From contig WYBL01000086.1 of the NCBI GenBank assembly GCA_011526565.1, positions 22,219 through 86,218 of the forward strand: a DNA stretch of 64,000 nt, given 5' to 3'. The stretch's first letter is position 1. The number at the start of each line of letters is the position of its first letter. This stretch comes from Acidobacteriota bacterium (GTDB taxonomy: Bacteria > Acidobacteriota > Vicinamibacteria > Fen-336). The notes below the pieces were generated by a model. It ran no database searches. It was not told where the DNA came from and was given only the letters and a program-made list of their open reading frames with translations. The translations under genes and the position numbers were made by a program. Below are positions 28,225 through 39,775 of the stretch, in pieces.

Positions 28225-29535
28225 GTGCTGGATCTGAAGTTCGTCATCGAGAACAGGGACAAGGTGCTCGAGCGGCTGGCCGCCCGCGGCAGCAGCCTCG
28301 AGCAGGTGTTCGCCTGGCCGGGACTGGAGGGCGCCGACCCGTGGGCGCTCGACGGCGAGCGACGGGCCACGATCCAGGCTGCCGAGGAGCGCCGCCACCG
28401 CCAGAAGAAGGTCGGCGAGGAGATCGCCCGCCGCGGCAAGGCGAAGGAGGACACCTCCGGGCTGCGCGCCGAGATGAAGGTCGTCTCCGACGAGATCAAG
28501 GCGCTCGAGGAGAAGCTGGCCGGCATCGAGAACACGCTGCGCCAGTTCCTGCTGGTGCTGCCCAATCTGCCCGACGACTCGGTGCCGGTCGGCGCTTCGG
28601 CCGACGACAACGTCGAGGTGCGCCGGGTGGGCACGCCGCGCAGGTTCGACTTCGAGCCGAAGGCGCACTGGGACCTCGGCCCCGCGCTCGGCATCCTCGA
28701 CTTCGAGCGCGCCGCGAAGGTGTCGGGCGCGCGCTTCGCCACCTACTTCGACCAGGGCGCCCGGCTCGAGCGTGCGCTCGTCCAGTTCATGCTCGACCTG
28801 CACACCACCGAGCGCGGCTATCGCGAGGTGATCCCGCCCTACCTGGTCACGGCCGAGACCCTGCTCGGCACCGGACAGCTCCCGAAGTTCGAGGGCGACC
28901 TGTTCAAGACCCGCGCGGGCGAGCGCGAGCTGTACCTGATCCCGACCGCCGAGGTGCCGCTGACCGCCCTGCACCGCGACGAGATCCTCGAGGCCGACGC
29001 GGTGCCCGTGCGCTACGTCGCCTTCACGCCCTGCTTCCGCTCGGAGGCCGGCTCTCACGGCAAGGACGTGCGCGGCCTGATCCGCCAGCACCAGTTCCAC
29101 AAGGTCGAGCTCGTCAAGCTGACGACACCCGAAACCTCGATGGAAGAACTCGAGAAGATGGTCGCCGACGCGGAAGAGGTGCTGAAGCGGCTGGAGCTGC
29201 CCTATCGCGTGATGGCGCTGTGCAGCGGCGACATGGGCAGCAACTCGGCGAAGACCTACGACCTCGAGGTGTGGCTGCCGGGGCAGAACGCCTACCGCGA
29301 GATCAGCTCCTGCTCGAACTGCACCGACTACCAGGCCCGCCGCGCGTCGCTGCGCTACCGGCCCGAGCCCAAGGGCAAGCCGCGCTTCCTCCACACGCTG
29401 AACGGCAGCGGACTGGCCGTCGGCCGCACCCTGGTCGCCGTGCTCGAGAACCACCAGCAGGCGGACGGCAGCGTGGCGATCCCGAAGGCCCTGCGCCCCT
29501 ACATGGGCGGCCTGGAAGTGATCACGCGGCGGTAG
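28225..29535 (+). CDS. serS: Seryl-tRNA synthetase
   Basis: N-terminal coiled coil, class-II aaRS motifs; GTG start with GAGAGG RBS. Confidence 0.95.
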
Positions 29536-29559: not shown

Positions 29560-31425
29560 TCAATTCTTCTTGAAGTTGAACTGGGCGGACTGCTGGACCT
29601 TGACCTTGACGCCTGCCTTCGTCGCCGGTTCGTAGCGCCAGGTCGCGACGGCCTTCAGGCCGGCGTCGTCGAGCGCCTTGCCTCCCGACTGCGCGACCCG
29701 CAGCTCCGTCGTCCGGCCCTTTTCGTCGACGATGAACTCGACGAGGACGACGGCCGGCAGCTTGACGTCCTTCGTCACGGCCGGCATCTGGACCGGGTCG
29801 CCGGACACCTTCTTCGGCGGCGTCATGTCCGTCGAGAGGGGCACCAGGTCGCCCTCCTTGACGGCCGGCGGTGGCGGCTCGGCGGGCTTGCGGGTGAGCA
29901 CGACCCCGACGCCGATGGCGACCGCCAGCAGCGCGGCCAGCCCGCCGATCAGCAGCCCCTTGTTGCCGCCGGAGGCCGCGGCGGGTGCCGCCACCGGCGC
30001 GGTCGCCGCCGCGACGGGACTGCCGGCGGGCGGCGTCGGCGGGGCGGGCACGGCGACGGCGCGCGGCACGTGCACCGTCGGCGCGTCCTCGTCGATCGGC
30101 GGCGGCGCCACGGCCGGCCGGCCCGAGCCTCCGCGCAGGTCCACCGTCGCGGGCTCGTCGTCCAGCGGCGGCGGCGGCACCGCCGGCCGTGCCGACGGGG
30201 AGGGGGGAGCGAGATCCGCCAGGGGATGATCGTCGACCACTTCGACGACCTCGACGTCTTCCGCGAGCGCCGCGCCTTCGGCGAGCGCGGAGGCGGCCTG
30301 GTCGGCGCCGAGGTAGACGGTGGACTCGGCGTCTTCGGCGGGCGTCGCCGGCGGCGGCGGCGGCGCGGCGGCGGGCGGCGGCGGCGGCACGGCCTTGCGG
30401 CCGCCGGAGATGGTGCCGCCCACGCTGCGCCGCCCCGACGACACGCCGCCCGAGGTGCCGCCGGAGCGGGCGCCCGCGTCGGCCGGGGGGCCGCCGAGCT
30501 CGTCGGCGTCCATCACCACCATCGACCCGGTGCCGGCCTCCGGCACCCCGGCCGGGCGCGCCACCGAGGCCGCCGGCGCCTCGTGGCCGAGCAGCGCCTG
30601 GGAGAACTCGGTCGCCGACTGGTAGCGGTCGTTGGCCTCCTTCGAGAGCACCTTCTCGAAGATGGCGTCGTACTCGTGGGGCAGGCCGAAATCGGCGATC
30701 CGCTTCGGGGGCTCGCGGATGATGCTCGTGATGATCACGGACACCGACTTGCCGGGGAACGGACGGTGTCCGGTCAGCGCCTCGTAGGCCGTGACGCCGA
30801 GGCTGAAGATGTCGGCCCGCGGGTCGGCGGGCCGGCCCATGATCACCTCGGGTGCCATGTACGACGCCGAGCCGAGCACGGCACCCGCCGCGGTGAGCTG
30901 CGAGCCGCCGATGCGGGCGAGGCCGAAGTCCATCACCTTCACCAGCCCGTCCGTCTGCACCATGATGTTGGCGGGCTTGATGTCGCGGTGGACGACGCCG
31001 TGGCGATGGGCGTAGTCGAGCGCGTCGGCCACCGAGGCGACGATCTCGAGCATGCGCTGGGCGCCGGGCGGGTTCGGGCTCTTGATCACCGCCGCAAGGC
31101 TCTGGCCCTCGACGAACTCCATCACCATGAAGTCGGGCCCGAGGTCGAAGACCTTGACGATGTTCGGGTGGTTGAGCACGCCCGAGACCTGGGCCTCGCG
31201 CCGGAAGCGCTCGAGGTACTCCTCGGCGCCGACCTCCATCTGGGCCAGGAAGGCGCGGTTCAGCGCCTTGATCGCGACGGTGCGGCCGATGAAGGGGTCG
31301 CGGCCCTTGTACACGACGCCCATGGCGCCGCGGCCGACCTCCTCGATCACCTCGTAACGGCCGAAGTCCTGGTCCATCTCTACGGCAGGGCGCTCCCCGG
31401 GGGATTGAGCTCCGGATGGTAGCAC
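29560..31425 (-). CDS. Hanks-type Ser/Thr protein kinase fused to Pro-rich linker, TM helix and TonB C-terminal domain (start 31425 or 31377)
   Basis: GRGAMGVVYKG, HRDIKPAN, DFG, APE kinase motifs; C-terminal TonB_C-like LPAVVLVEFIVDEKGRTTELRV...LKAVATWRYEPATKAGVKVKV. Confidence 0.9.
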   Translation of the reverse strand: MLPSGAQSPGERPAVEMDQDFGRYEVIEEVGRGAMGVVYKGRDPFIGRTVAIKALNRAFLAQMEVGAEEYLERFRREAQVSGVLNHPNIVKVFDLGPDFMVMEFVEGQSLAAVIKSPNPPGAQRMLEIVASVADALDYAHRHGVVHRDIKPANIMVQTDGLVKVMDFGLARIGGSQLTAAGAVLGSASYMAPEVIMGRPADPRADIFSLGVTAYEALTGHRPFPGKSVSVIITSIIREPPKRIADFGLPHEYDAIFEKVLSKEANDRYQSATEFSQALLGHEAPAASVARPAGVPEAGTGSMVVMDADELGGPPADAGARSGGTSGGVSSGRRSVGGTISGGRKAVPPPPPAAAPPPPPATPAEDAESTVYLGADQAASALAEGAALAEDVEVVEVVDDHPLADLAPPSPSARPAVPPPPLDDEPATVDLRGGSGRPAVAPPPIDEDAPTVHVPRAVAVPAPPTPPAGSPVAAATAPVAAPAAASGGNKGLLIGGLAALLAVAIGVGVVLTRKPAEPPPPAVKEGDLVPLSTDMTPPKKVSGDPVQMPAVTKDVKLPAVVLVEFIVDEKGRTTELRVAQSGGKALDDAGLKAVATWRYEPATKAGVKVKVQQSAQFNFKKN

Positions 31426-31450: not shown

Positions 31451-32746
31451 CTAGGGGCGGTCCTTGAACTGGCGATAGAGCCGGGTGTGGCGCGTCTCCA
31501 GCGACTGCTCCACGCCGTCGACGAACACGTGGCTCACCGTCGTCCGGTGGTCCATCGGGTCGCCGCTGGCGACGAACAGGCTGGCCGACTTGCCGACCTC
31601 CAGCGAGCCGAGCGAGTCCGCCACGCCGAAGATCTCGGCGGGAGACAGCGTGATCGCGCGCAGCGCCGCCTCGGCGGGCAGCCCGAAGGCCCGCGCCATC
31701 GCCGCCTCGAACGGCAGGTTGCGGGCGTTGGAGGGGTCGTTGGTGACGATCGCGAACGGCACCCCCGCCCGGTGCAGCGCCAGCACGTTCGTGTAGGCGG
31801 CGTCGTAGGCGTCGCCCTCGCGGCGCGGCAGCCGGTCGACGTTGGCGAGCACCGCGGCGCCTTTCGCCTTCAACTCGTCCGTGCAGCGCCAGGCCTCGAG
31901 CCCGCCGGCGACGATCGGCTTCAGGCCGTGCCGCGCCGCGAAGGCCAGCGCGCCGCGGATGTCGTCTTCCGCGTCGGCGCGGAACACCACGGGCACCTCG
32001 CCGCGCGCCGCGGGTGCCAGCGCCTCCATCGCGAGGTCCAGCTCCGGGGCGGCGGCCTGGCCCGCCGTGGCCGCGGCCTGCGCCGCCGCGTGGGCCTTCG
32101 CCCGCGCCAGCAGCTCGGCGAGCCGGGCCAGCGCCTTGTCCTGGTTCTTCCTGCGCTCCTTCTGGCGCTCGTCGAACGTCTTCAGCTCCGGCTCCGCGAA
32201 CATCTGCGCGAGATCGAAACCGCCGCGCCCGCTCGGGTAGACGACGTGCATCGCGGCCGGTGCCTTCGCGACCAGCGACGCCGGCGTCGAGCCGGCCAGC
32301 CGGATCAGCGCGCTCTGCCCGGAGACGAGGCCGCCGCCCGGCGCCGAGAGCACGTGGGTGAGGCCCGCGGCGCGCGCGACGGGGATCAGGTCGGAGTGCG
32401 GGTGGACCGCGATCCACGCCTTCGCGTGGGGGTTGACGTCGCCCGTCTCCGCGACGTCGACCGAGCCGGCCACCGAGCTGATCTCGGTCAGGCCCAGCGT
32501 GTTGAGGCCGTCGATCAGGCCCGGGTAGACGTGCCTTCCGGCCACGTCGACGACCCGCGCCCCGGCCGGCGCCGCGATGCTCGCGCCGATCGCGGCGATC
32601 CTGCCGTCGACGATCAGCACGTCGCCCTTCTCGAGCGCGGGGCCCGACACCGGCACCACGCGGCCGCCGCGCAGCAGCGTCGCTTCGCCGGCGGAGAGCG
32701 GGACCGCGGCGAGGGCCAGGAGCAGGCTCGTCAGCGCGCGCTTCAC
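31451..32746 (-). CDS. Amidohydrolase-superfamily paralog lacking the HxH metal-binding motif (predicted non-catalytic), secreted
   Basis: Signal peptide; YPGLIDGLNTLG in place of HxH; GTG start with GGGAGGTG RBS, GTGA overlap with upstream gene. Confidence 0.8.
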   Translation of the reverse strand: MKRALTSLLLALAAVPLSAGEATLLRGGRVVPVSGPALEKGDVLIVDGRIAAIGASIAAPAGARVVDVAGRHVYPGLIDGLNTLGLTEISSVAGSVDVAETGDVNPHAKAWIAVHPHSDLIPVARAAGLTHVLSAPGGGLVSGQSALIRLAGSTPASLVAKAPAAMHVVYPSGRGGFDLAQMFAEPELKTFDERQKERRKNQDKALARLAELLARAKAHAAAQAAATAGQAAAPELDLAMEALAPAARGEVPVVFRADAEDDIRGALAFAARHGLKPIVAGGLEAWRCTDELKAKGAAVLANVDRLPRREGDAYDAAYTNVLALHRAGVPFAIVTNDPSNARNLPFEAAMARAFGLPAEAALRAITLSPAEIFGVADSLGSLEVGKSASLFVASGDPMDHRTTVSHVFVDGVEQSLETRHTRLYRQFKDRP

Positions 32747-34026
32747 TGCGCACCTCCCGCCGCCGTCGCGGCGCTTCTCGCGGCGAGGTCCTGCGCGCGG
32801 TCGAAGCGCACGACGCCGTCGACCAGCGTCATCTCGACCCGGGCGTCGGGCGAGAAGGGGTGGGCGGAGAACACCGCGAGGTCCGCCTGCTTGCCGGCCT
32901 CGATCGAGCCGACCAGGTGGTCGACGCCGAGCTGCCAGGCGGGGTTCAGCGTGATCATCTTCAGCGCCTCCTGCTCCGGCACGCCGCCGTAGCGCACGGC
33001 CTTGGCCGCCTCCCAGTACAGCCGCCGCGCCAGCTCGTTGGAGTCCGAGTTGAGCGAGACGACGACGCCCTTCGAGTGCAGCACCGCCGCGTTGAAGGGG
33101 ATCGCGTCGTGGGCCTCGAGCTTGAACGCCCACCAGTCGGAGAAGGTCGAGGCGCCGGCCCCGTGCTTCGCGATCTCGGAGGCGACCTTGTAGCCCTCCA
33201 GCACGTGCTGGAACGTGCGCACCTTGAAACCGAGCTCCTCGGCCAGGCCGATCAGCATCAGGATCTCGTCCGAGCGGTAGCAGTGGGCGTGGATCAGCAC
33301 CTTGCCGTCGAGGATGTCGGCGATCGTCTCCAGTCGCAGGTCGCGCCGCGGCGGCACCGGCGCGATCGCGCCCCTGCCCGCCGCCTTCTTCTTCTCGTGC
33401 TGCTGCCACTCGCGGCGGTAGGCCTTCGCCTCCAGGAACGCCTCGCGGATCACCTCGGCGACGCCCATCCGGGTCGCCGGGTAGCGGCGCGGGCCGGGGG
33501 CGCTGAAGTTCGCGCGCTTGGGGTTCTCGCCGAGTGCGAACTTGATCCCGCGCGGCGCCTCGGCGAACACGAGCTGCGCCGGGTCGTCGACGCCCCAGCG
33601 CAGCTTGAGCACCGCGTTCTGGCCGCCGATCGCGTTGCACGAGCCGTGCAGCACGTTGATCGCGGTGACGCCGCCGGCGAGCTGGCGGTAGAGGTTCACG
33701 TCGCGGTGGTCGATCACGTCCGCGATCCGCACCTGCGCGGTGACCACGTCGGTGCACTCGTTGACGTTGTCCTCGATCGCCGCGTGCGAGTGGGCGTCGA
33801 TGATGCCGGGCATCACGAAGCGGCCCGCGCCGTCGATCACCTTCGCGCCGGCGGGCACCGTCACGTCGGCGCCGACCGCGGCGATCCTGCCGTCGCGGAT
33901 CAGCACCGTGGCCTTGTCGAGGTTGCCGGCCTTCGACACGGTGAGCACCGTGGCGCCGACGATCGCCGTCGTCTCGCCGGCGGCCGGCGCGGCCGCGAGC
34001 AGGGCGCAGAGCAGCAGGGCGTTCAT
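32743..34026 (-). CDS. Amidohydrolase-superfamily protein (catalytic; HxH present), secreted
   Basis: MPGIIDAHSHAAIED metal-binding motif, further His/Asp ligands; signal peptide. Confidence 0.85.
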   Translation of the reverse strand: MNALLLCALLAAAPAAGETTAIVGATVLTVSKAGNLDKATVLIRDGRIAAVGADVTVPAGAKVIDGAGRFVMPGIIDAHSHAAIEDNVNECTDVVTAQVRIADVIDHRDVNLYRQLAGGVTAINVLHGSCNAIGGQNAVLKLRWGVDDPAQLVFAEAPRGIKFALGENPKRANFSAPGPRRYPATRMGVAEVIREAFLEAKAYRREWQQHEKKKAAGRGAIAPVPPRRDLRLETIADILDGKVLIHAHCYRSDEILMLIGLAEELGFKVRTFQHVLEGYKVASEIAKHGAGASTFSDWWAFKLEAHDAIPFNAAVLHSKGVVVSLNSDSNELARRLYWEAAKAVRYGGVPEQEALKMITLNPAWQLGVDHLVGSIEAGKQADLAVFSAHPFSPDARVEMTLVDGVVRFDRAQDLAARSAATAAGGAQ

Positions 34027-35306
34027 CGCGCGACCTCCTCGCCGGCGCGCGGCCGGCCCTCGCCGCCGGGCGCGGCGGGCTTGTCCTCCGGTTCGAAGCG
34101 CTCTCCGTCGACGAACACCAGCTTCGCCTTCGTGTCCTTTGCGAACGGCTCGCCCGACCAGGCGACCAGGTTGGCCGCCTTGCCCGCCTCCAGGCTGCCC
34201 GTGCGGTCATCGATGCCGAGCGCCTCCGCGGCGCCCAGCGTGACCGCGCGCAGGGCGGCCTCCTGCGGCAGCCCGCGCTCGATCGCCTTGCGGATGCCGG
34301 CCACGAAATCGCGGCCGTGGGCGGAGACGAGGGCGAAGCGCAGGCCGGCCACGTGCAGCTTGCCGGGGTTGCGCTCGGCCGCCTCGATGTCGGCCTTCTC
34401 CTTCGCCTCGTCGGGCCCGCCGCCGAAGCTGAAGCCGGCCGCCCGCGGCGGGTCGTAGTTCGTGGTGACGAGCAGCGGCCGCCCGGCCTTCTTCAGCAGG
34501 TCGGCGACTTCCCACGCCTGCGGGACGCCGGCCAGGACGACCTTCACGCCGAACTCCTGGCCCAGCGCCAGCGCGCGGCGGACGTCGTTGAGGCGGCTAC
34601 AGGTGACGATCAGGGGCAGGCGACCCGCGAGGACGTCCTGCCAGGCCCGCGCCGAGGCGTCGAAACGCGGGCGCTCCTTGCCGCGCGGGTCGCGCTCGTA
34701 GTCGTCCCACTGCGCCTGCTGGTGGCGGGCGTCGAGCAGCGCCTGGCGCGCCCACGCGACGGTGCCCATCAGCGAGGCCGGGTACTGGCGGCGCAGCGTC
34801 GACAGGTGCAGGTGCAGCGCCGCGGGCTGGCGCCACACCAGCGCCTCCGCCGTCTCGCCCGCCAGGTTGAGCAGCACGCTGCGCCCGCCGGCGATGCCGT
34901 CGGGCGCCACCACCAGCGCGGTGGTGATGCCGGCGTCCCGCGCCTTGAGCGCATCCGCCAGCTTCACGCGGTCGAGCACGTCCGCCTCCGCGGCCAGCGG
35001 GTCCGGGGCATTCGTGGCCGCGCCGCCCGGTCCGCCCGCGGGGCGGGCCGGCAGGCCGATGCCCGAGAAGGCGTCGATCAGGCCCGGGGTCAGGGTCAGG
35101 CCCGAGGCGTCGATCACCCGCGCGCCGGCCGGCACCGCGACGTCGGCGCCGACCGCCGCGATCACGCCGCCGCGCAGGAGCACGGTGGCCTTCTCGAGCG
35201 CCGGGCCCGAGACCGGCAGCACGCGGCCGCCGACCAGCGCGACGACGGGCTCGGCCGTGGCCGCCGGGGCCAGGGCCAGCAGCACGGCGAGAAACACGAA
35301 TCTCAT
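34023..35306 (-). CDS. Amidohydrolase-superfamily paralog lacking the HxH motif (predicted non-catalytic), secreted
   Basis: TPGLIDAFSGIG in place of HxH; signal peptide MRFVFLAVLLALAPAATA; ATGA overlap with the downstream gene. Confidence 0.8.
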   Translation of the reverse strand: MRFVFLAVLLALAPAATAEPVVALVGGRVLPVSGPALEKATVLLRGGVIAAVGADVAVPAGARVIDASGLTLTPGLIDAFSGIGLPARPAGGPGGAATNAPDPLAAEADVLDRVKLADALKARDAGITTALVVAPDGIAGGRSVLLNLAGETAEALVWRQPAALHLHLSTLRRQYPASLMGTVAWARQALLDARHQQAQWDDYERDPRGKERPRFDASARAWQDVLAGRLPLIVTCSRLNDVRRALALGQEFGVKVVLAGVPQAWEVADLLKKAGRPLLVTTNYDPPRAAGFSFGGGPDEAKEKADIEAAERNPGKLHVAGLRFALVSAHGRDFVAGIRKAIERGLPQEAALRAVTLGAAEALGIDDRTGSLEAGKAANLVAWSGEPFAKDTKAKLVFVDGERFEPEDKPAAPGGEGRPRAGEEVAR

Positions 35307-35341: not shown

Positions 35342-36436
35342 TCAGCGCGCCCGCACCGCGTGGGCGTAGGCGGCCGCAGCGCGCAGGGCGTACGACTCGA
35401 GCAGCCGGTCGTACGGCTCCTCGTGGATCGACAGCAGCAGCAGCGCGCCCAGCGTGCGCTGCGGCGTCGCCAGCGGCACCCGCAGCAGGGTGCCCGCCGA
35501 GAGCCGGAAGCCGAGGGCGGCTTCCGCCGTGGCGAGTTCCGCGGCGTCGAGCCGGGCCAGCGCCCCGCCGGCCAGCACGACCGGAGCGGGGCGGCCTGCC
35601 GCGCGCTCGAAGACGTCGCCGGCGGTGGCGACGACGCGCCCCCCGCCGTCTTCGCTCAGCACCAGCAGCCCGGCGGTGTAGCCGCCGACGCGCAGCGCTC
35701 CCTCCAGCAGCACCTGCTGCAGCGCCGCCGCCGGTTCGCCGGCGAACAGCGCCTGGTCGACCGCGACCAGCCGCTCCATCAGGGCGGCGTAGCGGCGCAG
35801 GTGCTCGTGGAGCTGCGCCTTGCGGATCACCGCGGCGGCCGAGAAGGCGACCGCCTTGGCGCGGTACAGGTCCTCGTCGCCGAAGGCCTGGACGCGGCCG
35901 CGGCCGAGGGCGAGCACGCCCAGCACCTGGCCCTCGACCAGCAGCGGGATGCCGGCCCACGAGCCGATCTCGCCGCAGCCGGGCAGCGGTGCGAAGCGCT
36001 CGTCGGCCGCCACGTCGGCCACCACGACCTCGCGGCGGGTGGCGCACACCTCGTCGACCAGCGCGCTGCGGAAGCGCTGGCCGAGCGCGAGGCCGGGCTC
36101 CTCGAAGCCGCGCACGGCGAAGGCGCGGAAGCTGGCGTCCGGCTCCTGCAGCAGCAGCGCGCAGGAGTCGTAGAGGACCAGCCGAGCGAGCTGCTTCAGC
36201 ACCTCGCCGACCGTCTCCTCCAGGCTCTGCTGGCGGCCGATCGCCTCCAGGATCTCGCGCAGCGTCTCGGCCTCGAGCCGGCGCTCGCGCTCGACCTCGA
36301 CGGTGCCGACCGGGTCGTGGCGCCGCCGCTCGCGGCCGATCTCCTCGCGCAGCGCGTCCAGCACCTCCGCGCGGTGGGCCTCCGTCAGCCCCACCAGGCG
36401 TCGCTCGACCTCGCGCAGCAGACGCTCCGTGTTCAT
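35342..36436 (-). CDS. Tandem GAF-domain protein
   Basis: Two GAF-like modules, 364 aa. Confidence 0.75.
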   Translation of the reverse strand: MNTERLLREVERRLVGLTEAHRAEVLDALREEIGRERRRHDPVGTVEVERERRLEAETLREILEAIGRQQSLEETVGEVLKQLARLVLYDSCALLLQEPDASFRAFAVRGFEEPGLALGQRFRSALVDEVCATRREVVVADVAADERFAPLPGCGEIGSWAGIPLLVEGQVLGVLALGRGRVQAFGDEDLYRAKAVAFSAAAVIRKAQLHEHLRRYAALMERLVAVDQALFAGEPAAALQQVLLEGALRVGGYTAGLLVLSEDGGGRVVATAGDVFERAAGRPAPVVLAGGALARLDAAELATAEAALGFRLSAGTLLRVPLATPQRTLGALLLLSIHEEPYDRLLESYALRAAAAYAHAVRAR

Positions 36437-36497
36437 GAAGAATCGCACGGATTCTAGCAGCCGGCCGCGCGATAGACTGCGGGAGCGCCGCGCCTTC

Positions 36498-36584
36498 GGA
36501 GGGCTAGCCTAACGGTAAGGCAGGAGCCTTGAAAGCTCCCGGGCCGCAAGGCCCTTGGGGGTTCGAATCCCTCGCCCTCCGCCA
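36498..36584 (+). tRNA. tRNA-Ser (anticodon UGA), 87 nt with long variable arm and encoded CCA
   Basis: Acceptor GGAGGGC/GCCCTCC, D-stem GCCT/AGGC, anticodon stem GGAGC/GCTCC with loop CTTGAAA, variable arm GGGCC-GCAA-GGCCC, T-loop TTCGAAT, discriminator G, CCA. Confidence 0.9.
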
Positions 36585-36847
36585 GATCATTCCGGAGTCG
36601 CGGCGACGCCTCACGGCGTCTCCGCGCTCCCTGGGTCTGGGCGGAGGAGCGCAGCGACGGAGCCCAGCGGCCCGAGCGCCGGGATTCACTCCCGGCGCGA
36701 GCCGCCTTCCTGGGCTACGTCGGACGACTCCGGCCTCCTCCGCCCCCGAACCCCCACGGGCATCCAGAATCGCAGGTTCATCGCGTTGAAGTCCACAAAA
36801 TCGGGCGCCGGGGGACTATGATGCGCGGCAATTCTCGAGGAGGTCTG

Positions 36848-39775
36848 ATGTTCCACATGCGGTCCGTTCGTTTGGTCGTGCTTCTGGCCCTCGTGGCGCT
36901 GCCCGCGACGAGCCTGTTCGCGCAGCAGACCGGCGCGATCAAGGGCACCGTCACCGCCACCGACGGCTCGGTGCTGCCCGGCGTCACCGTCGAGGCCCGC
37001 TCCGCGGTGCTGCCCAGCCCGCGCGTCACCGTCACCGGCGGCAACGGCGACTACCGCCTGCCGGCGCTGCCGCCGGGCGTCTACGACGTCAAGTTCGAGC
37101 TCTCCGGCATGGCGCCGGTGACCCGCAAGGTCACGGTCGCGCTGGCGCTCGAGACGACCGCCGACGCCAGGCTGAACCTGGCCGGCGTCGAGGAGTCGGT
37201 CACGGTCACGGCCGAGCTGACGCTCGTCGACAAGGACCGGCCGACGATCCAGGCCAACCTCTCGAACGACGAGATCTCCGGCCTCCCGGTCGGCCAGGAG
37301 TACCGCGACCTGCAGAAGCTGATCCCCGGCGTCCAGTACTCCGAGGACCTGGTCCGCGGGCCCTCGGCCGGCGGCTCCGGCCAGGACAACGTCTACCAGT
37401 TCGACGGCGTGAACGTCACGATGCCGCTGTTCGGCACGCTGTCGGCCGAGCCCTCCTCCCAGGACATCGCCCAGGTCACCGTGATCAAGGGCGGCGCCCA
37501 GGCGGTCGACTTCAACCGCGCCGGCGGCTTCCTGATCGACTCGGTCAGCAAGACCGGCACCAGCGAGTTCCACGGCGAGCTCAGCTTCGAGATGCAGAGC
37601 GCCGGCATGACGGGCGACCTGACCGCCGCCAGCGACTCGCGCTACGACGAGGACCGCTCGTGGCTGGCGGCCAGCCTCGGCGGCCCCGTGGTCAAGGACA
37701 AGCTGTACTTCTACGGCTCCTACTACCGGCCCGAGCGCAGCCGCGAGAACCGCGCCAACAACTACGGCGAGCTGCCGAAGTACGAGAGCGTCCGCAACGA
37801 GGGCTTCGGCAAGCTGACCTTCACGCCCAACCAGTCGGTGCTGCTCAACGCGACCTACCGCCACTCGAAGCGCGAGGACACCTCGAGCCTGTTCGGCGCC
37901 AGCTCCTCGGCGACGACCGGCACCGGCGACGAGTCGGTGCAGAAGATCCTGACCCTCGAGGGCTCGTGGGTCGTCAACTCGAAGAGCTACTTCACCGCCA
38001 ACTACACGAACTACGCGCTGGAGACGCTGAGCCGTCCGGACTTCGAGTCGTCCGCGGTCCCGACCTCGGCGATCGGCGCCCGCCTCAACATCAACAGCCT
38101 CGACACCGAGGGCCGGCTGACGGTCCCGTCGCCGATCAGCGGCGCCACCGACTTCAACAACTTCGTCGCGCCGATCATCGCCCGCTACGGCTTCGACCGC
38201 GACGGCAGCAAGGTCGGCGGCGGCATCGTCGGCTACGGCGGCGAGTTCAACGACCAGGACTTCTTCCGCGACGCGCTGCAGCTCGGCTACAACATCACGG
38301 TCGGCTCGAGCCTGATCCACGACCTGCACTTCGGCTTCCAGTGGTCCGAGGACTCCGAGGAACTGGTCCGCAGCTCGAACGGCTGGGGCCTGATCTCGGT
38401 GCCCGGCGGCCGCCTCGCGCCGCCCGTCGCCGGCAACCCGCAGCGCGCGTACTACCAGGCCCGCTACCAGCAGCAGGGTACCGGCCAGGCCGCGCCGATC
38501 ATCTCCTCGTACCGGACGTTCGACCTCGAGTTCAACGACACCATCCGCTGGAAGAAGTGGGCCTTCAACCTCGGCGTGCTGGCCAGCCAGGACACGCTGT
38601 ACGGCCAGGGCCTGCGCGAGGACAGCTCCACGCTGTCGGGCTACGTCTCCGCCCCGGGCAACAAGTACGAGATGTACAAGATCCCGTTCAGCAAGATGAT
38701 CCAGCCCCGGCTCGGCGTGACCTTCACCTACAACGACTCGGACACGATCTACGCGAGCTACGCGAAGTACAACCCGGCGGCCTCGTCGCTGCCGCGCGCG
38801 GCCTCGTGGGACCGCAACCTGATCGGCACCTTCGTCGACGCCTTCTTCGACCAGAACGGCGTGCTGTTCGCGGCCGTCCCGGTCGGCTCCTCCTCGGGCA
38901 AGCTGTTCGTCGAGGACATGACGCCGCGCACGGTCAACGAGTTCCTGATCGGCACCTCGAAGCAGTTCAACCAGAACTTCTCGGGCCGCCTCTACGGCCG
39001 TCACCGCCGCGGCTCGCATTTCTGGGAGGACACCAACAACAACGCCCGCGTCGCGTTCAACCCACCGGCCGGCATCCCGCGCGAGCTCTACATCGCCGAC
39101 CTCGACGCCCGGCGCGCCCAGATCGGCAGCGGCTCCTCCTACGTGATCGCGGAGCTCGACGGCGCCTACACCCGCTTCAACGAGGTGACGCTGGAGGCCG
39201 AGTGGCGTGACGCCAAGACCGTGGTCCGCGGCTCCTACACGTGGAGCGAGTACTACGGCAACTTCGACCAGGACAACTCGACGACGGGCAACGACGCCAA
39301 CATCTTCATCGGCTCGTCGAACATCGCCGACGCGGCCGGCCGCCAGCTCTGGGACTTCAAGGACGGCACGCTGCGCGGCGACCGCCCGCACCTGCTGAAG
39401 GTGTTCGGCTACCGCACGCTGCCGTGGAACGGCATCGTCGGCCTCTTCACGGTGTTCCAGTCGGGCCAGCCGTGGGAGACCTGGAGCTACGAGCCGTACC
39501 GCGCGCTGACCACCTCGACCAGCTCGACCAACCGTTACGCGGAGAAGGCCGGCTCCCGCCGCTCCGACTCGCACTTCCAGATCGACCTGAAGTACATCCA
39601 GAACTTCAAGGTCGGCGGCCGCGCCAACCTGGCGCTCACGGCCGAGCTGTTCAACGTGTTCGACAACCAGACGGGGTACAACATCGACCCCATCTTCAAC
39701 AGCTCGCAGTTCGGACAGCCGCGCAGCTACTACGCCCCGCGGCGGCTGCAGATGACCGGCGCGTTCACGTTCTAG
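36848..39775 (+). CDS. TonB-dependent outer-membrane receptor with N-terminal carboxypeptidase-regulatory-like domain
   Basis: Signal peptide, CarboxypepD_reg-like N-domain (GTVTATDGSVLPGVTVEARS), plug and beta-barrel, C-terminal Phe (GAFTF). Confidence 0.9.
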   Translation: MFHMRSVRLVVLLALVALPATSLFAQQTGAIKGTVTATDGSVLPGVTVEARSAVLPSPRVTVTGGNGDYRLPALPPGVYDVKFELSGMAPVTRKVTVALALETTADARLNLAGVEESVTVTAELTLVDKDRPTIQANLSNDEISGLPVGQEYRDLQKLIPGVQYSEDLVRGPSAGGSGQDNVYQFDGVNVTMPLFGTLSAEPSSQDIAQVTVIKGGAQAVDFNRAGGFLIDSVSKTGTSEFHGELSFEMQSAGMTGDLTAASDSRYDEDRSWLAASLGGPVVKDKLYFYGSYYRPERSRENRANNYGELPKYESVRNEGFGKLTFTPNQSVLLNATYRHSKREDTSSLFGASSSATTGTGDESVQKILTLEGSWVVNSKSYFTANYTNYALETLSRPDFESSAVPTSAIGARLNINSLDTEGRLTVPSPISGATDFNNFVAPIIARYGFDRDGSKVGGGIVGYGGEFNDQDFFRDALQLGYNITVGSSLIHDLHFGFQWSEDSEELVRSSNGWGLISVPGGRLAPPVAGNPQRAYYQARYQQQGTGQAAPIISSYRTFDLEFNDTIRWKKWAFNLGVLASQDTLYGQGLREDSSTLSGYVSAPGNKYEMYKIPFSKMIQPRLGVTFTYNDSDTIYASYAKYNPAASSLPRAASWDRNLIGTFVDAFFDQNGVLFAAVPVGSSSGKLFVEDMTPRTVNEFLIGTSKQFNQNFSGRLYGRHRRGSHFWEDTNNNARVAFNPPAGIPRELYIADLDARRAQIGSGSSYVIAELDGAYTRFNEVTLEAEWRDAKTVVRGSYTWSEYYGNFDQDNSTTGNDANIFIGSSNIADAAGRQLWDFKDGTLRGDRPHLLKVFGYRTLPWNGIVGLFTVFQSGQPWETWSYEPYRALTTSTSSTNRYAEKAGSRRSDSHFQIDLKYIQNFKVGGRANLALTAELFNVFDNQTGYNIDPIFNSSQFGQPRSYYAPRRLQMTGAFTF

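Follow-up and report, generated by a model that had tools for sequence, protein, structure and literature searches.

A conserved trio of amidohydrolase paralogs with one predicted catalytic member and two probable pseudoenzyme partners

Three overlapping genes of an Acidobacteriota bacterium (assembly GCA_011526565.1; Vicinamibacteria, Fen-336), here called g1, g2 and g3, probably encode a single exported amidohydrolase composed of one catalytic subunit (g2) and two non-catalytic paralogous subunits (g1 and g3) in a 1:1:1 ratio, a reading to which a probability of about 0.72 is assigned. The genes lie on the reverse strand of a stretch of 64,000 nucleotides (contig WYBL01000086.1, positions 22,219 to 86,218; hereafter the window, whose numbering is used throughout). 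The reading is carried by the anatomy of the genes, the pattern of metal ligands in their products, the division of the three modules, termed D1 (g1), D2 (g2) and D3 (g3), into separate clades, colinear gene fusions, conservation across phyla and confident rigid-body models of the fusions. A periplasmic location and the assembly of the three unfused chains are predicted, as are metal content and substrate.

Gene anatomy, family and metal ligands

The genes are arranged in the order g1 (34023..35306; ATG start, 427 amino acids), g2 (32743..34026; ATG start, 427 amino acids) and g3 (31451..32746; GTG start, 431 amino acids) in DNA of about 72-73% G+C, and a purine-rich, Shine-Dalgarno-like motif (GAGGAG, AGGAGG or GGGAGG) stands 5-9 nucleotides before each start. 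The stop codon of g1 and the start codon of g2 share ATGA (34023..34026), with AGGAGG 7 nucleotides 5' of the ATG, and the stop codon of g2 and the start codon of g3 share GTGA (32743..32746), with GGGAGG 5' of the GTG. These are the 4-nucleotide overlaps reported by an earlier note, which a model had made from the sequence alone, and the exact coordinates confirm them as sites of likely translational coupling; two such overlaps in an adjacent trio of paralogs exclude a chance pattern. The open reading frames (ORFs) are intact and identical on 11 contigs, and public gene calls on contigs with identical g1 give products of the same 427, 427 and 431 amino acids. A search of the whole window found no further copy of the trio type. 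A scan for promoter and terminator consensus sequences between 31 and 37 kb, uninformative at 73% G+C, found nothing.

The N-termini read MRFVFLAVLLALAPAATA/EP in g1, MNALLLCALLAAAPAAG/ET in g2 and MKRALTSLLLALAAVPLSA/GE in g3. In each, a small-residue motif follows a short run of hydrophobic residues, and the maximal Kyte-Doolittle means over 10 residues are 3.28, 2.87 and 2.70, respectively; on account of this high hydropathy all three resemble Sec signal peptides, in agreement, as far as hydropathy goes, with the signal peptides claimed in the earlier note.

All three products exceed the Pfam cut-offs for Amidohydro_1 (PF01979; 25 bits) and Amidohydro_3 (PF07969; 29.7 bits), with 48.9 and 51.8 bits for g1, 68.3 and 67.1 bits for g2 (Amidohydro_1 match at residues 70-405) and 42.9 and 34.8 bits for g3, and thus belong to the amidohydrolase superfamily. 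In a three-way alignment g1 is 34% identical to g2 and 38% to g3, and local tblastn alignments among the three give 31-37% (about 31% between g2 and g3). Against module profiles g1 scores 480 bits for D1, 164 for D2 and 256 for D3, while g2 scores 641 bits for D2 and g3 517 bits for D3. The top PDB match of each is 3OOQ (E 1.4e-58 over residues 37-410 for g2, 4e-28 for g1 and 1.9e-37 for g3). Two named families were considered and rejected, the Xaa-Pro dipeptidase/Arg-Lys carboxypeptidase family of COG1228 (NF051886; 51, 55.1 and 45.7 bits for g1, g2 and g3 against a cut-off of 500) and imidazolonepropionase HutI (TIGR01224; 46.8, 59.8 and 42.5 bits against 298). Such scores place the three proteins outside these families, and as every NCBIfam equivalog falls far below its cut-off, no specific enzyme name can be assigned. 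Homologues are named in databases as 'amidohydrolase family protein' or, by JGI, 'imidazolonepropionase-like amidohydrolase'.

Two independent samples served for the typing of modules, the best 150 representatives of clusters at 50% identity, drawn from a search of 1.84 billion proteins, and 80 species-representative genomes; the orthologue sets for ligand scoring comprise 80 D2, 69 D1 and 70 D3 modules. The combination of HxH after strand beta1 with Lys at beta4, two His (beta5 and beta6) and Asp at beta8 is found in g2 only. It consists of H79-x-H81 (codons H79-S80-H81, 33784..33792), K162 (33541..33543), and H248, H274 and D328 (within 33043..33285), and is accompanied by E167 in a GENPKR motif. 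These residues, E167 included, are invariant in D2 of all 80 species, and the ligands are present in 84 of 84 D2 modules among the cluster representatives, except for K162 and H248 (83 of 84 each). Judged from sequence, the metal centre of g2 would be of the typical binuclear, lysine-carbamate-bridged type, K162 being the presumed carbamylated bridging ligand by analogy with the superfamily subtype.

The six ligand positions are occupied by F, G, H, T, G and a gap in g1, and by L, T, H or V (according to the alignment used), R, G and N in g3. Within D1 and D3 not one of these positions is conserved; the beta6 His, for example, is replaced by Gly in 54 of 69 D1 and 58 of 70 D3 modules. The earlier note had assigned the HxH motif to the middle copy (PGIIDAHSHAAIED) and had placed PGLIDAFSGIG (g1) and PGLIDGLNTLG (g3) at the same position, and all three motifs are correct. 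It had also found no obvious downstream His/Asp ligands in the flanking copies and had called them pseudo-enzymes; the alignment that it proposed for scoring the ligands finds the set complete in g2 and lost at all six positions in g1 and g3, and the set is likewise unconserved in D1 and D3 across the 80 species. An alternative complete metal-binding set in the flanking copies, which would have spoken against the proposal, was looked for and not found, the lists of conserved columns for D1 and D3 holding no conserved His, Cys or Asp cluster.

The loss extends beyond the ligands. D2 appears to contain a large invariant polar pocket, and N89, H127, N131, K141, N168, R186, Y250, K280, D297, W299, K302 and D382, all invariant in D2, are lost from D1 and D3. 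The exceptions are the residues equivalent to E90, Y203 and R334, which survive chiefly in D3 (67, 62 and 69 of 70 modules, respectively), and D3 has conserved acidic residues of its own (E88, D97, E100 and D315). Columns conserved at 85% or more number 109 in D2, 48 in D3 and 35 in D1, and those of D1 and D3 consist largely of Gly, Pro and Ala and include no His or Cys. Mean pairwise identity across phyla is 52% for D2, 37% for D3 and 30% for D1, so that, with their retention across phyla, the inactive modules evolve faster yet are clearly kept. Taken together, the residue patterns support a non-catalytic nature of g1, g3 and their D1 and D3 orthologues.

One D2 sub-group, found in triple fusions, keeps the six ligands and has the GENPKR motif replaced, by KFAIKEFARRR in P0136 (about residues 590-602) and KFAVKKAVEIG in P0167 (about residues 538-550), which may reflect a different substrate or second-shell arrangement.

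Distribution, fusions and structure models

A search with g1 gave 14,852 matches at E <=0.001 and 1008 clusters of 50% identity at E <=1e-30. In the top 150 clusters the architectures are D1 alone (54), D1-D2-D3 (42), D1-D2 (35) and D2-D3 (12); the module order equals the gene order of the window in 143 of the 150, the remaining seven having odd or permuted architectures. A second set of fusions comprises 20 triple, 68 D1-D2 and 31 D2-D3 proteins. Triple proteins are 1,130-1,550 residues long, and named members come from Vicinamibacterales, Armatimonadota, Candidatus Solibacter, Planctomycetota and Pirellulales. Among D1-D2 fusions of about 1000-1100 amino acids, many have a D1 of 560-630 amino acids, about 150 residues longer than the 427 of g1 (P0183, P0228 and P0231, with a D1 envelope from 1 to about 600), which indicates an insertion of unknown fold and role.

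A scan with the D2 alignment, one genome per species, found at least 425 relatives, of which the best 80 were analysed. These 80 span more than ten phyla and include Acidobacteriota, Gemmatimonadota, Planctomycetota, Verrucomicrobiota, Beta- and Gammaproteobacteria, Bacteroidota (Flavobacterium, Polaribacter, Tenacibaculum, Spirosoma, Dyadobacter, Hymenobacter and Algoriphagus), Rhodothermales, Balneola, Marinimicrobia, Zixibacteria, Eisenbacteria and a metagenome-assembled genome (MAG) of an actinomycete. D1, D2 and D3 follow each other in this order at about 70 of the 80 loci, as three genes, as two plus one, as one plus two or as a single gene, and at most of the other loci the trio is cut by a contig end. 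The triplet is thus widely conserved in related genomes, a check that the earlier note had suggested. An ordered trio, often fused, in more than ten phyla probably represents a single widespread enzyme machine. At one locus on a long-read ENA contig (L003:7296-9893) the D2 and D3 genes are split into several short ORFs, most likely by frameshift errors of the assembly rather than as real pseudogenes.

Where the modules are separately encoded, the genes are closely joined: among 88 such junctions (the start codon nearest the upstream stop being chosen) 36 overlap by 4 nucleotides and 8 by 1 nucleotide, and 72 fall within 20 nucleotides. A hydrophobic N-terminus opens 83 of the 88 downstream modules.

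In a neighbour-joining tree rooted on 3OOQ, D1 (69 sequences), D2 (80) and D3 (70) each form an exclusive clade, and the sequence comparison identifies them as three separate ancient clades. With 319, 288 and 230 bits against the D1, D2 and D3 profiles, respectively, 3OOQ lies at about the same distance from each.

AlphaFold2 was run on two natural fusions, using alignments of other fusions. P0167, a compact D1-D2-D3 protein of 1129 amino acids encoded in a MAG of Candidatus Solibacter and carrying a single signal-like peptide at its N-terminus, gave a mean predicted local distance difference test score (pLDDT) of 88.1 and a predicted template modelling score (pTM) of 0.90. P0361, a D2-D3 fusion of 886 amino acids, 58% identical to g2 and 46% to g3, gave a pLDDT of 89.6 and a pTM of 0.90. 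Low confidence is confined to the linkers between modules (about 25 residues). A pTM of 0.90 over modules of equal size means that their mutual arrangement is predicted with confidence, as a rigid packing. In the P0167 model the D2 ligands (H460, H462, K541, H607, H633 and D680) occupy the places that the fold demands, at strand ends or immediately beyond them. A Foldseek search of the PDB with this three-module model gave 3OOQ as the best match, to single modules, with a target-normalised template modelling score (TM-score) of 0.87; no entry matched beyond one module (query-normalised TM-score <=0.30).

Interpretation and relation to known systems

The colinear D1-D2, D2-D3 and D1-D2-D3 fusions, the conserved order, the coupled junctions and the pTM of 0.90 support the view, already expressed in the earlier note, that the three modules act as one unit. 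D2 would be the sole catalytic part, and D1 and D3, which keep the barrel-plus-sandwich fold without the metal ligands and most pocket residues, would be non-catalytic subunits packed against it. The overlapping stop and start codons would lead to roughly equal synthesis of the three chains, each exported via its own signal peptide, with assembly 1:1:1 beyond the cytoplasm; two- or three-module fusions would hard-wire this assembly in many lineages. The dead modules could serve as a scaffold, a gate or a substrate-binding surface. As a low-confidence guess by analogy, the substrate may be a small peptide or N-acyl amino acid, cleaved at its amide bond, because prolidases, Arg/Lys carboxypeptidase and ochratoxin amidohydrolases cleave the amide bond to a C-terminal amino acid.

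Several points weigh against this reading. In a Vicinamibacterales MAG a D2-D3 fusion precedes D1 (L017:5824-10058); two Acidobacteriaceae loci (L058 and L081) have D2 and D3 with no D1 within 6 kb upstream, and at four loci of Bacteroidota and Verrucomicrobiales (L043, L065, L078 and L079) the 6 kb downstream of a D1-D2 fusion hold no D3. With six two-module loci and a permuted one, the trio is neither absolutely obligatory nor fixed in order. The choice of the start codon nearest the upstream stop biases the junction gaps towards small values, the signal peptides were judged heuristically, by hydrophobicity and by eye, and the confidence of AlphaFold2 may come partly from learned homo-oligomer interfaces of the fold. 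The genomic context of the trio at the 80 loci, and that of 3OOQ-type genes, gave no hint of a substrate or role.

A stronger version, which is tentative and rather doubtful, holds that the trio is an ancient obligate pseudoenzyme-enzyme-pseudoenzyme hetero-assembly in which a composite substrate chamber or gate, made by the two dead barrels, surrounds the single active site. If so, heterotrophic soil and marine bacteria would possess in the trio a major extracytoplasmic hydrolase, unstudied to date and acting on housekeeping substrates such as damaged or unusual peptides beyond any known periplasmic peptidase.

It is unlikely that D1 and D3, though non-catalytic, form no stable complex with D2 and are instead periplasmic ligand-binding, chaperone or regulatory proteins of the same pathway, which for example capture the substrate or sense the product and are merely tethered to D2 in the fusions. 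The persistence of the E90, Y203 and R334 equivalents in D3, its acidic E88, D97, E100 and D315, which could form a binding site, and the genomes with only two modules at the locus are consistent with such a role. However, the pTM of 0.90 for both two- and three-module fusions points to one rigid body and not to loosely strung beads, the modules keep a fixed order and P0167 has short junction linkers; moreover, tight 1:1:1 coupling suits structural subunits better than soluble binding proteins, which are usually made in excess.

Still less credible is a set of three independent enzymes catalysing consecutive hydrolytic steps of a pathway, with g1 and g3 using non-canonical, possibly metal-independent catalysis. 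All three genes are intact, conserved and under selection, some superfamily members work without the canonical metal set, and fusions of consecutive pathway enzymes are common. Nevertheless, the few conserved columns of D1 and D3 are dominated by Gly, Pro and Ala, no polar cluster occurs at the strand ends where the fold places its chemistry, and the residues at the lost-ligand positions vary between species, which is unexpected for a replacement catalytic site. Decay of g1 and g3 as recent tandem duplicates of g2 with no role of their own, which might be read from the lost ligands and the faster evolution of D1 and D3, is effectively refuted by the deep conservation of these modules as separate clades common to more than ten phyla and retained inside fusions, and the ORFs are intact and identical on the 11 contigs.

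For the preferred reading, one catalytic and two non-catalytic subunits in a single assembly, the nearest solved structure is 3OOQ, a structural-genomics entry of a Thermotoga maritima MSB8 amidohydrolase without assigned function. It shares the ligand motifs of g2 (DAHSH, KMAFGEN, HAH, EH and CDH) and is oligomeric (10 chains, dihedral symmetry), but it is a single chain of about 386 amino acids as against three modules here, and it lacks the D2-specific motif DWW-x-YK-x-E. The alignment begins only a few residues from its N-terminus, which leaves no room for a signal peptide. Genes of this type occur in Thermotogota, Dictyoglomota and some Firmicutes as stand-alone genes of about 385 amino acids with no paralogous partners nearby, and among their neighbours in Thermotoga and Kosmotoga none was shared or informative. 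As 3OOQ stands outside the D1, D2 and D3 clades, and the window proteins are apparently exported and three-module, the trio is best placed as a sister group to the 3OOQ family. On the simplest account, a 3OOQ-like homo-oligomeric ancestor would have been triplicated before the divergence of the carrier phyla, or the trio would have spread early as a unit; catalysis would afterwards have been lost in two of the three copies, the inactive copies taking over two of the assembly's three positions.

After 3OOQ, the best matches in sequence and fold are COG1228 relatives, Sgx9260b/c (3FEQ, 3N2C, 3MKV) and Cc2672 (3MTW), and the ochratoxin amidohydrolases (8IHQ, 9KOV). They belong to the same superfamily, with a barrel and a composite beta-sandwich, cleave the amide bond to a C-terminal amino acid and have many chains per crystal entry. 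Unlike the trio, each has one kind of active subunit, and the TM-scores of the fold matches are only 0.4-0.6. The family of a 2026 preprint on metallo bile-salt hydrolases was also considered; it is different, single-domain and of 945 amino acids.

Proteins of the amidohydrolase fold that have lost the metal ligands are known in the eukaryotic dihydropyrimidinase-related (CRMP/DPYSL) family, which acts through protein-protein interactions and hetero-oligomers. Members of this family (4B90, 4B91) are weak matches to g1 and g3 (E about 1e-5), but they are distant, cytosolic signalling proteins that have no active paralog as partner. Among eukaryotic kinases and proteases, pseudoenzymes that work together with an active paralog of their own are well documented; to our knowledge, such cases have rarely been described in bacterial metabolism.

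The clearest bacterial precedent for an amidohydrolase pseudoenzyme as a structural subunit appears to be the pseudo-dihydroorotase pDHO (PyrC') of the Pseudomonas aeruginosa aspartate transcarbamoylase (ATCase) complex, reported to be an inactive, stoichiometric subunit of amidohydrolase fold that is needed for the activity of its partner (PMC7053772). As in a pseudoenzyme of this type, g1 and g3 combine loss of the catalytic residues with retention of the fold and conservation across phyla. The partner of pDHO, ATCase, is not related to it, and they form a biosynthetic complex in the cytoplasm, whereas in the trio the partner is a paralog of the same fold, two distinct inactive modules are present and the proteins are apparently exported.

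A literature search found no paper on a pseudoenzyme-enzyme-pseudoenzyme amidohydrolase trio or its fusions. The superfamily of the components is very well known, and the architecture is of moderate interest and not a new principle. It is a clean and very widespread bacterial pseudoenzyme case, with an arrangement frozen into fusions many times, and a natural system for the evolution from homo-oligomer to hetero-oligomer with division of labour. It also draws attention to a large family of 'amidohydrolase family protein' entries, abundant in Acidobacteriota, Bacteroidota, Planctomycetota and Verrucomicrobiota, in which two-thirds of such genes should not be counted as hydrolases.

Genomic neighbourhood

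All-against-all clustering of the neighbouring ORFs at the 80 loci found no gene family shared more widely than family-level synteny, the largest cluster reaching 8 of 80 loci. These neighbours are of housekeeping type (SpoU methylase, RelA/SpoT, M48 and M20 peptidases, DUF3810 and AsmA-like proteins).

In the window, a gene for a GAF-domain protein of 368 amino acids (35342-36448, reverse strand) lies 35 nucleotides upstream of g1. It occupies this position in Vicinamibacteria relatives (L001-L006) and is not found beside the trio in other phyla, and it may encode a lineage-specific regulator or simply be co-transcribed. A 985-amino acid protein with a signal-like N-terminus and a CarboxypepD_reg match of 58 bits (36818-39775, forward strand) looks like an Acidobacteria-type TonB-dependent outer-membrane receptor; a similar gene also occurs near the trio in L003, and it is not a conserved neighbour across loci.

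Directly 3' of g3 lies a gene (29560-31425, reverse strand) for a protein of 621 amino acids (Pkinase 167 bits, TonB_C 46 bits), in which an N-terminal Ser/Thr kinase is joined to a C-terminal TonB_C domain by a long, Pro/Ala-rich linker with a hydrophobic segment. The pairing of a cytoplasmic kinase with a periplasmic TonB-type domain in one protein is unusual, and a Pkinase and TonB_C protein of 605 amino acids is found at the same position in L004, which has an identical g1. The only tRNA gene of the window, tRNA-Ser(TGA) (36498-36584, forward strand), lies about 7 kb from a seryl-tRNA synthetase gene (28225-29535, forward strand; Seryl_tRNA_N and tRNA-synt_2b), and the trio, the GAF gene and the kinase gene stand between the two.

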